NCBI GenBank assembly: GCA_045637165.1 | Contig: JAZTYU010000025.1 | Location: 5,565-69,564, forward strand | Length of the DNA: 64,000 nucleotides | Reading direction: 5' to 3' | Source of the DNA: Candidatus Enterousia sp. | GTDB taxonomy: Bacteria; Pseudomonadota; Alphaproteobacteria; Rs-D84 | In this document: positions 2,766 to 4,307 of the stretch, one piece after another | Position numbering within the stretch: the stretch's first letter is position 1 | Layout of the letters: each line of letters opens with the position of its first letter | Program-made: the position numbers and the translations under genes | The notes under the pieces: model-generated | What the model saw: only the letters and a program-made list of their open reading frames with translations | The model's database searches: none | What the model was told of the DNA's origin: nothing

Positions 2766-4307
2766 ATGAGTTTCGTAAAAGCACTAAGATTTAATATGTC
2801 TGTTTTTTGTCTGGCTGGTCTGTTGACGTTGCCGGCATATTCTGCGATAACCGAATACGGTGTGCAAGAGGCATGGGACAATCCGACAGCAAATATGGCC
2901 AGCGGCAGCACCAAGCCAGGATATGCACAGTTAGCGTGGTCAGCCGGCAGTGTTTTACCAATCAAATTGCGTAATGGTATGGTAACAATGGTCACATTGC
3001 CAAATGGCGAGCAGATTGCAGATGCAATGGTTGGAAACCAAGACCTGTTTGATATTGACGCAACCCAGGGCGGTCAGACAATGTTTATTTCGCCAGTCGG
3101 TTCGAATCAGGGGTCCGATACCAATATGATTGTGACGGGAAAATCGGGAAATAAATATATTTTCTATTTACGCAGCGAACCATCTAATTCCAGTGAAATC
3201 ACATATTCCCAAGTTGATATCGTTTTGGACGGGAATGTAGCACTGCCAACCGCAGGTGCAGTTCAGGCATCAAGTGGGGCAAGTTCTATATTCAAAAAAG
3301 CTGCAACTTCAAGTAATACCACAAATACAGTTGGGGTTGATGGCGAAGATTATGGCTGGATTAAATCGATGAAAATTGACCCTTCGGAATTCCGTTTCGA
3401 CTTGGACATCTTTGTTCCAAATCCAGACGACTATGTAATCGCACCAGAACGTGTATGGCGTGATAGAATTTTCACATACATTGATTTTGGCGACAAGGTT
3501 ATCGCAATGACCCAACGTCCTGTTGTTTCACTGTTGGTCGAAGGGGGCGAATCCCCTGTTGGATTCCGCACAGACGGCGAAGATGGACGCTTGCTGATTG
3601 TAGAAGCCGTGGGCGATATGGTTCTGCGTAGTGGTCAACGTATTGTTTGTATTAAAAAGCGTGAAAAACCATTCTTGATTGCAGATACAGCATCTGTGAT
3701 GGCACTGGCCGAGGCAAACGTTGCACAAAGCATGCTGTCGGGACAATCATTAAGCAACATTGCATATACAGACAGTATGGCCGCAATGAGCATGGGAACA
3801 CCATATACTGGCACACCTGTATTCGTTGGCAACAATCAATCTGTCAACCAGGCAACAGGTGCAGGATATTATATGCCGGCAGGCTATACAACACCGCAGA
3901 CAATGCCACGTTCATCGGGCAGTGTTGTAAATATGCTGCCAACACAACGCAACACAGCAGGTGCGTATTTGCCACAGACAAATATTCCGCTGATTTCAAG
4001 TAATCAGGTTGGGGTTGCGGTTGAATTAAAATCTGATACGTCTGTCAAGGCGTTGGATGACTATTGGACAATGCTGTTGGCTAAATTCAGTGGCGAAAAT
4101 GGTCAAGGACTGCTGACCCCATATAAGAATATGGTATTCTTTGCGGTTGACGAACAGGGGGTCGGCGAATTGGGTGCAGATTCAACAACAGCACGTCAAT
4201 ATCGCCTGCGTATTGGACCATTGGCAGATATAGATACGGCACAGACATTGTGCGATAAGCTGTTAAAGTTCAGCGGAACAAGTTGTAGCGTTGTCAGAAT
4301 GCAATAA
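2766..4307 (+). CDS. virB9: Type IV secretion system protein VirB9-like with C-terminal SPOR domain
   Basis: Signal peptide MSFVKALRFNMSVFCLAGLLTLPAYSA. VirB9/CagX N-domain (VLPIKLRNGMVTMVTLPNGEQIADAMVGNQDLFDI...TNMIVTGKSGNKYIFYLRS) and C-domain (PERVWRDRIFTYIDFGDK...PVVSLLVEGGESPVGFR...LIVEAVGDMVLRSGQRIVCIKK). The last ~100 aa (GVAVELKSD...YRLRIGPLADIDTAQTLCDKL) look like a SPOR fold. Start placed at ATG 2766 (GGAAGGA SD); the track start 2751 is the alternative. Confidence 0.8.
   Translation: MSFVKALRFNMSVFCLAGLLTLPAYSAITEYGVQEAWDNPTANMASGSTKPGYAQLAWSAGSVLPIKLRNGMVTMVTLPNGEQIADAMVGNQDLFDIDATQGGQTMFISPVGSNQGSDTNMIVTGKSGNKYIFYLRSEPSNSSEITYSQVDIVLDGNVALPTAGAVQASSGASSIFKKAATSSNTTNTVGVDGEDYGWIKSMKIDPSEFRFDLDIFVPNPDDYVIAPERVWRDRIFTYIDFGDKVIAMTQRPVVSLLVEGGESPVGFRTDGEDGRLLIVEAVGDMVLRSGQRIVCIKKREKPFLIADTASVMALAEANVAQSMLSGQSLSNIAYTDSMAAMSMGTPYTGTPVFVGNNQSVNQATGAGYYMPAGYTTPQTMPRSSGSVVNMLPTQRNTAGAYLPQTNIPLISSNQVGVAVELKSDTSVKALDDYWTMLLAKFSGENGQGLLTPYKNMVFFAVDEQGVGELGADSTTARQYRLRIGPLADIDTAQTLCDKLLKFSGTSCSVVRMQ

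Follow-up and report, generated by a model that had tools for sequence, protein, structure and literature searches.

Introduction

Machines that span the bacterial envelope must traverse the cell wall and also be secured there, and DotK is, to our knowledge, the only wall anchor that has been studied in the core complex of a type IV secretion system (T4SS). DotK binds peptidoglycan and holds the Dot/Icm (type IVB) system of Legionella pneumophila at the cell poles (PMC10266036); peptidoglycan anchors therefore matter for a T4SS. Wall-binding modules are also known from other trans-envelope machines, where they are found on SciZ/TagL of the type VI secretion system, ExeA in type II secretion, and FimV and TsaP of the type IV pilus (PMC10266036). 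Here, we describe a 64,000-nucleotide stretch of DNA, hereafter the window, from Candidatus Enterousia sp. (assembly GCA_045637165.1, contig JAZTYU010000025.1, positions 5,565 to 69,564), in which the gene for the T4SS subunit VirB9 (2751-4307, + strand; 518 aa by translation, with a Pfam CagX match) ends in a SPOR-family domain (residues 421-518, 98 aa; 4011-4304, + strand) that is probably a built-in wall anchor. VirB9 forms a multi-copy ring beneath the outer membrane.

The VirB9 tail resembles the SPOR domains of FtsN, DamX, DedD, RlpA and CwlC in its predicted β-α-β-β-α-β fold, in the YR(L/V)RxGP motif of the third strand, in its C-terminal place after a low-complexity linker, and in a cysteine pair of the kind seen in alphaproteobacterial SPOR domains. 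It differs from them by a Glu or Asp in place of the Gln of β1, by a longer β2-β3 hairpin in the order Rs-D84, and by its carrier, which is a ring subunit of a secretion system, while known SPOR carriers are division proteins, amidases and lytic transglycosylases. The closest functional analogue is DotK, likewise a peptidoglycan-binding module of a T4SS outer-membrane complex if the role inferred for the tail is correct. The two are not homologous: DotK, a lipoprotein subunit of its own, has an OmpA-like fold and is thought to bind the peptide stem, whereas the VirB9 tail is predicted to fold like a SPOR domain and forms part of its carrier. The modules of SciZ/TagL, ExeA, FimV and TsaP have other folds (OmpA-like, PF01471, LysM) and sit on other subunits of other machines. 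A search of the literature found no paper that describes such a domain on VirB9 or any other subunit of a T4SS, and the original prediction, made from the DNA letters of this window, had put the fusion forward as one not known from characterised VirB9 proteins. The VirB9-SPOR fusion is thus undescribed, yet widespread: thousands of database proteins that are labelled only "TrbG/VirB9 family" are VirB9 subunits with their own domain of the wall-binding type.

A SPOR-type domain at the end of VirB9

The original prediction assigned positions 4011-4304 to a C-terminal SPOR-type domain, and the residues it quoted are exactly residues 421-518 of the 518-aa open reading frame (ORF). The assignment is borne out by Pfam, hhalign, AlphaFold and Foldseek, and neither outcome that had been named as speaking against it, the lack of a SPOR match and the lack of an RNP-like predicted fold, was observed. 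A search of the isolated tail with the hidden Markov model of Pfam SPOR (PF05036, gathering score 21 bits) gave a match of 22.8 bits over residues 478-516, and in a scan of the whole genome the tail of VirB9 scored 22.1 bits, both above the cut-off. When 30 diverse tails with less than 70% mutual identity were searched, 28 of them matched Pfam SPOR without the rest of the protein (best E = 2.2e-9), and only two other Pfam families occurred among the 30, in two tails and in one. Membership of PF05036 is marginal for the window copy and solid for the clade.

An exhaustive phmmer search of 1.84 billion representative proteins with the tail as query returned only 20 matches. Some were tailed VirB9 proteins, with identities as low as about 40%, and the others were multi-SPOR proteins with E-values of about 1e-4. 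Common to the VirB9 tail and the matched SPOR proteins is the motif YRLRxGP...LCxxL...GxxCxVV, both cysteines included. The tail profile also matches ordinary SPOR proteins, near full-length, in about 175 of 401 alphaproteobacterial genomes. By profile-profile comparison with hhalign, the diverse-tail profile aligned to a SPOR alignment with 98.4% probability (E = 4.6e-15, 82 columns), and a richer profile of 30 tail sequences raised this to 98.6% (E = 4.8e-16), the alignments spanning 79-82 columns. Because this first target was partly circular, with some of its SPOR sequences having been found via the query, the comparison was repeated against the genome's own SPOR domains with shuffled controls. 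Here, the SPOR domain of an FtsN-like protein was matched over 74 columns with E = 1.5e-5, where the best of 30 column shuffles reached 0.039. Among the genome's own SPOR domains only this FtsN-like, Cys-pair type is recognisably similar to the VirB9 tail; those of the carboxypeptidase and of RlpA are not recognisably similar by hhalign. On these sequence comparisons, the VirB9 tail belongs to a Cys-pair SPOR subclass that is common in Alphaproteobacteria.

The FtsN-like protein, the closest paralogue of the tail in the genome, is encoded on contig C9 (locus L001, 1495-2322, - strand). Its 275 aa comprise a transmembrane helix, a linker rich in Pro and Gln, and a SPOR domain that shares its cysteine pair with the VirB9 tail; VirB9 may have acquired its own domain from a source of this type.

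The structure predicted for the tail is of the same kind. The AlphaFold model of the domain (predicted local distance difference test, pLDDT, 79.5; predicted template modelling score, pTM, 0.72) has its elements in the order β-α-β-β-α-β that is typical of a four-stranded antiparallel sheet with two helices, the ribonucleoprotein (RNP)-like fold that had been anticipated for the last 100 or so residues. The three best matches of this model among structures in the PDB, as found by Foldseek, are all SPOR domains: 6i09 (RlpA SPOR with denuded glycan), 6i05 (apo RlpA SPOR) and 6ztg (DedD SPOR), with a template modelling score (TM-score) of 0.66 on target length for the top SPOR matches.

Several results weigh against a SPOR identity. 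They would suit another explanation, by which the tail is one of the generic domains, ferredoxin-like or ring-building, that occur in secretion systems, and its match to SPOR is a marginal coincidence. The full-length protein scores only 19.2 bits for PF05036, which is under the 21-bit cut-off, so that the window copy stands at 19-23 bits overall, and its alignment is limited to model positions 38-76, which make up the second half. Foldseek gave modest E-values, with no match at E ≤ 0.001, and many generic ferredoxin-like folds follow the top three. Profile searches of PDB sequences with the tail were not significant, with the SPOR domain of CwlC appearing at E of about 0.9, and phmmer against the same sequences returned spurious matches only, to designed β-trefoil proteins; the link of the tail to solved SPOR structures came from the fold search and not from sequence. 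A coincidence of this sort, however, would have to account for the SPOR matches of 28 in 30 diverse tails, the hhalign alignment over the full domain, the cysteine pair and YRLRxGP motif shared with genuine SPOR proteins, the near full-length matches to ordinary SPOR proteins across the class, and three best structural matches that are all SPOR domains, and we consider it very improbable. We file the VirB9 tail as a homologue of SPOR domains, in sequence and in predicted fold, with glycan binding left aside as a separate matter.

A deep clade of tailed VirB9 proteins

The host belongs to Candidatus Enterousia, order Rs-D84, and its genome assembly is 1.0 Mb in size and 96% complete. Related metagenome-assembled genomes of this genus come from the gut of humans, ruminants, horses and chickens. 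Rs-D84 bacteria have been described as fermentative organisms with reduced genomes that lack most biosynthetic capacity, and a dependence on partners has been proposed for them; a T4SS is not mentioned in that account (PMC12306168). A full-length profile search found VirB9-SPOR as a single copy in 120 of 121 sampled Rs-D84 genomes, including all 111 high-quality genomes and all 20 genera, from six families, and every Rs-D84 match extends to the end of the tail. VirB9-SPOR is hence part of the core gene set of a gut lineage (Candidatus Enterousia, Rs-D84 and relatives) that is abundant, uncultured and thought to be partner-dependent.

The fusion is not confined to this order and occurs in at least 11 other alphaproteobacterial families. 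In the sample of 401 alphaproteobacterial genomes, 19 genomes of these 11 families, with sizes of about 0.9-2.5 Mb, have strong tail matches in ORFs of 485-605 aa, and the layout of these sequences is likewise that of a VirB9 fusion; a tailed VirB9 is present in 22 of the 78 VirB9-bearing genomes of this sample. The tail is no chance pattern, being found in each of the 268 full-length family members that were collected. More than 1,200 further clusters at 90% identity all carry the label "TrbG/VirB9 family" and nothing else, and about one-sixth of them have a precomputed SPOR hit. An artefact of gene fusion or assembly was considered and is ruled out by conservation across more than 100 genomes. 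An Enterousia-type VirB9-SPOR gene with 78% identity to the query also occurs in a bin named "Bacteroides fragilis isolate ... cleanbin" (locus L083, CAVGNU010000001.1), which is probably mislabelled.

The six nearest tail-less relatives of these VirB9 proteins have no SPOR domain, in a search for independent SPOR fusions among other long VirB9 ORFs that covered these six. They end either soon after the VirB9 core or in long, unfolded tails rich in Pro, Gly and Gln. Because the nearest tail-less relatives lack a folded tail domain, the SPOR module looks like one acquisition in a deep clade. Two VirB9 proteins of a sister lineage (546 aa; loci L136 and L137, G251:C78 and G403:C13) have C-terminal tails of about 180 residues that are rich in Pro, Gly, Gln and Asn and hold no folded domain, and the order virB8-virB9-virB10 is kept around their genes. 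Capture of the SPOR domain may thus have come after a long flexible tail was already in place.

An acidic residue in the putative glycan-binding site

The mechanism by which a SPOR domain holds its ligand is illustrated in the crystal structure of the RlpA domain in complex with glycan, where Gln270 forms hydrogen bonds to the lactyl carboxylate of N-acetylmuramic acid (MurNAc) and to the N-acetyl group of N-acetylglucosamine (GlcNAc), while Arg309 and Arg311 form a basic pocket (PMC6895207). The equivalents of Gln270 and Arg309 in FtsN are Q251 and R285 (PMC6895207). The Gln of β1 (FtsN Q251, DamX Q351, RlpA Q270) is the best-conserved residue of the SPOR glycan cleft.

The arginine half of this site is retained in the VirB9 tail. 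Arg485-Leu486-Arg487 of β3 (4203-4211, + strand) would correspond to RlpA R309 and R311 (FtsN R285), which make up the pocket for the MurNAc lactyl carboxylate, a correspondence obtained by aligning the ...IGP motif with FtsN as in PMC6895207. Both arginines are 100% invariant among 102 non-redundant Rs-D84 sequences, as are W439, L486, P490, C501 and C512. The last two of these, Cys501 in α2 (4251-4253, + strand) and Cys512 at the start of β4 (4284-4286, + strand), are partners in a probable disulfide. This pair recurs in alphaproteobacterial SPOR domains, such as that of the FtsN-like protein of this genome, and fits an oxidising, periplasmic location. FtsN has a C252-C312 disulfide (PMC6895207), and manual alignment of the β4 residues would place Cys512 at the position of C312.

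The Gln half is not retained, and here the evidence turns against glycan binding of the usual kind. The hhalign column correspondence places Glu425 (GAA, 4023-4025, + strand) in the column of the glycan-binding Gln, which all 12 reference SPOR domains carry. Residue 425 is Glu in 101 of the 102 Rs-D84 sequences and Asp in the remaining one, and 40 of 40 diverse tails from the wider clade are acidic at this position, so that the conserved β1 Gln of SPOR domains is absent from the VirB9 tail. In FtsN the same change, Q251E, is the standard allele defective in denuded-glycan binding, and it about halves septal localisation; it reduces binding without abolishing it, and SPOR-SPOR self-interaction is reported to be independent of glycan (bioRxiv 10.1101/2024.05.13.594014). 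How Glu425 is placed with respect to the arginines, and how far apart the two cysteines lie, are judged from homology. Because the β1 Gln is invariantly Glu or Asp, and FtsN Q251E weakens binding, we count the canonical mode of glycan binding as disfavoured. The site as a whole appears to be under strict selection yet non-canonical, as the rest of it is invariant while Gln has become Glu or Asp. In essence, this is a natural experiment on SPOR specificity, in which a residue change that disables glycan binding in the laboratory has long been fixed in evolution with the rest of the pocket strictly conserved.

The main rival to a wall-binding role follows from this substitution. The SPOR-derived tail might no longer bind peptidoglycan and might serve instead as a protein-protein module, with Glu425 filling the arginine pocket in place of the carboxylate of the ligand. 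In such a case, the tails could associate with one another in a peripheral ring, or dock to the Cys-rich C-terminus of VirB10 or to some substitute for VirB7. Agreeing with this are the invariantly acidic residue, which matches a binding-defective allele of FtsN, the unusual extra domains on VirB10, and the likely position of Glu425 on β1 beside Arg485 and Arg487 on β3, where a salt bridge could form (as judged from PMC6895207). However, both pocket arginines and the SPOR sheet are strictly kept, which would equally be expected of a sugar-binding site, and Q251E leaves FtsN with part of its binding; we regard a protein-contact role as possible but unlikely.

Alternatively, the acidic change could mark a subclass of SPOR domains whose ligand is new, for example a glycan that is positively charged or modified in another way (e.g., one with N-deacetylated glucosamine, GlcN) or a polymer other than peptidoglycan. 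The tail could then direct the T4SS to a part of the envelope that bears a chemical mark, or touch the wall of a partner cell if it is exposed at the surface. That the acidic residue does not vary across a deep clade speaks for a function and against decay. Simulations of the RlpA SPOR domain indicate that it turns away N-deacetylated glycan, to which the Gln is unable to bond (PMC6895207). A carboxylate could pair with a free amine, and the hosts are proposed to depend on partners (PMC12306168). Set against these points, no PgdA-type deacetylase (PF01522) was detected in the genome, and the domain is expected to be periplasmic. We judge a new ligand of this kind improbable for the tail. A bolder form of the idea, in which the replacement of Gln by Glu or Asp defines a new SPOR specificity class, for modified or deacetylated glycan or for an envelope landmark, that positions a lineage-wide T4SS in partner-dependent gut bacteria, is in our view doubtful.

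Possible anchoring of the core complex

The role we consider most likely for the tail, with moderate confidence from its sequence and from the analogy with DotK, is the anchoring or positioning of the outer-membrane core complex in the sacculus, with weaker or altered recognition of glycan. As VirB9 forms a ring, each machine would carry a crown of SPOR-type domains on flexible tethers, and these tethers would be long enough for the domains to reach the peptidoglycan layer around the machine. There, the domains would fix or position the core complex in the sacculus, and the VirB9 tail would play in cis the part that DotK plays as a separate subunit in the Dot/Icm system. Since Glu or Asp replaces Gln, weaker or altered glycan recognition is expected, and not the classical binding of denuded glycan at the septum. 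The original prediction had proposed a tether to the sacculus or septum via denuded glycan, which is plausible. An AmiC-type amidase is encoded in the genome, so denuded glycan can be made, and three ordinary, Gln-bearing SPOR proteins are present alongside VirB9: the FtsN-like protein, RlpA and the carboxypeptidase.

It had also been suggested that the tail could compensate for an apparent lack of VirB7 and VirB1. The absence is only partly upheld: no VirB7-like gene lies beside the operon, but the genome has an SLT-domain protein and RlpA elsewhere. Compensation by the tail for either missing subunit is speculation.

Architecture of the VirB9 protein

The product of virB9 is a Sec-exported protein. 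A signal peptide without a lipobox occupies residues 1-32 (2751-2846, + strand), as read from the sequence, with a predicted helix over residues 5-30 and a putative cleavage site between ...LTLPAYSA and I. An alternative start at Met6 (nucleotide 2766) gives a 513-aa form that is the database copy (entry P0004, 100% identical). Pfam CagX/VirB9 (PF03524, gathering score 34.2 bits) matches residues 60-303 at 79.3 bits (E = 4.5e-22, model positions 5-197 of 198) and so places the protein in the VirB9 family, while the equivalog model for P-type VirB9 (NCBIfam TIGR02781) reaches 54.8 bits against a cut-off of 217.7. The protein is a member of a divergent VirB9 subfamily, which has the weakest CagX scores of the class-wide sample.

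Two VirB9 domains make up the core. The N-terminal β-sandwich domain (residues 56-160; 2916-3230, + strand) lies inside the CagX match and is modelled by AlphaFold with strands over residues 57-159 at a pLDDT of about 80-87. The C-terminal domain (residues 201-310; 3351-3680, + strand), covered by the CagX match up to residue 303, is the best-conserved segment of the protein, with a mean column identity of 0.95 across the 102 sequences, and the AlphaFold model is poor there. Because the full-length model (mean pLDDT 52.1) is of low quality in its central part, it was used for secondary structure only. The core is followed by a conserved helix (residues 311-335; 3681-3755, + strand; predicted helix 316-327, column identity 0.85).

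Between the core and the SPOR-type domain lie about 85 residues that are predicted to be disordered. Most belong to a low-complexity linker rich in Q, S, T, P, M, G, N and Y (residues 336-405; 3756-3965, + strand; pLDDT of about 25-45), whose column identity of 0.63 is the lowest among segments of the mature protein; the SPOR-type tail has a mean of 0.80. The linker leads into a conserved motif, YLPQTNIPLISSNQ (residues 406-420; 3966-4010, + strand), in which L407 (98%), P408 (99%) and P413 (99%) stand out in the same 102 sequences. This motif is specific to the order Rs-D84 and is not present in the sequences of the wider clade. The SPOR-type domain then runs through β1 (421-429), α1 (432-447), a short helix (456-461), β2 (462-466), β3 (484-491), α2 (494-508) and β4 (513-517).

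The secretion system and its genome context

The gene context is that expected of a VirB9, with genes for VirB8 and TrbI/VirB10 on its two sides and further T4SS parts elsewhere in the genome. virB8 (2067-2738, + strand; Pfam VirB8 PF04335, E = 6.6e-11) is the first gene of a tight virB8-virB9-virB10 operon that is placed between secE-nusG-rplKA and yidC. The last gene, virB10 (4327-6753, + strand), encodes 808 aa with long N- and C-terminal extensions around a Pfam TrbI match at residues 393-600 (E = 4.9e-18). In VirB10, the TrbI domain is preceded by a transmembrane helix, about 110 additional residues and a spacer rich in Pro and Glu; after the domain come about 200 residues with a Cys-rich end (...CEGNIAPDANGCCPGEIYTDMGEQGFNCCPETGGDCFPPIL), which could be a partner of the VirB9 tail or a surface-exposed part.

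The remaining genes of this chromosomal T4SS are scattered around the genome, with virB3-virB4 at about 12.9-15.6 kb and virD4 at about 69.2-71.4 kb of contig 8, and a gene for a VirB11-type ATPase on contig 14. A Pfam scan of the genome found no VirB1, VirB2, VirB5, VirB6 or VirB7. TrbL/VirB6 had no Pfam match anywhere in the genome, and five consecutive ORFs of 395-497 aa in the window (40483-47093) gave no TrbL match even at E ≤ 1. The genome's one SLT-domain protein is encoded away from the T4SS genes. This order-wide, single-copy and scattered chromosomal T4SS resembles the rvh system of Rickettsiales rather than a conjugative element. Like rvh, it is chromosomal, conserved across its lineage, split over several loci and housed in a reduced alphaproteobacterial genome; unlike rvh, it has virB11 and virD4 in places not adjacent to virB8-10. 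We know of no rvh VirB9 protein with a SPOR tail.

Several other genes are of note. In the window, a PBP5-type D,D-carboxypeptidase (13184-14401, - strand; Peptidase_S11, E = 1.7e-58) ends in a canonical SPOR domain with the β1 sequence VQFG, in line with what had been predicted for it (Pfam E = 4.6e-9), and a linker plus this domain appear to stand in place of the usual C-terminal domain and membrane anchor of PBP5. About 4.5 kb from virD4, a four-gene cluster (contig C8, 75868-80544) resembles a type IVb pilus; its products are a PilO-like accessory protein (PF06864, E = 4.7e-9), a coiled-coil protein, a T2SSE ATPase of 545 aa and a T2SSF platform protein. A 189-aa lipoprotein of no known family with the lipobox LGGC (contig C14, 10380-10949, - strand) is encoded divergently from the gene for the VirB11-type ATPase and directly upstream of it, and is a candidate for a T4SS outer-membrane lipoprotein with a VirB7-like role. 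Finally, a gene that overlaps the end of virB4 by 14 nt (contig C8, 12268-12900, - strand) encodes a secreted, Cys-containing protein of 210 aa with no Pfam family, which could be an unrecognised component of the T4SS.

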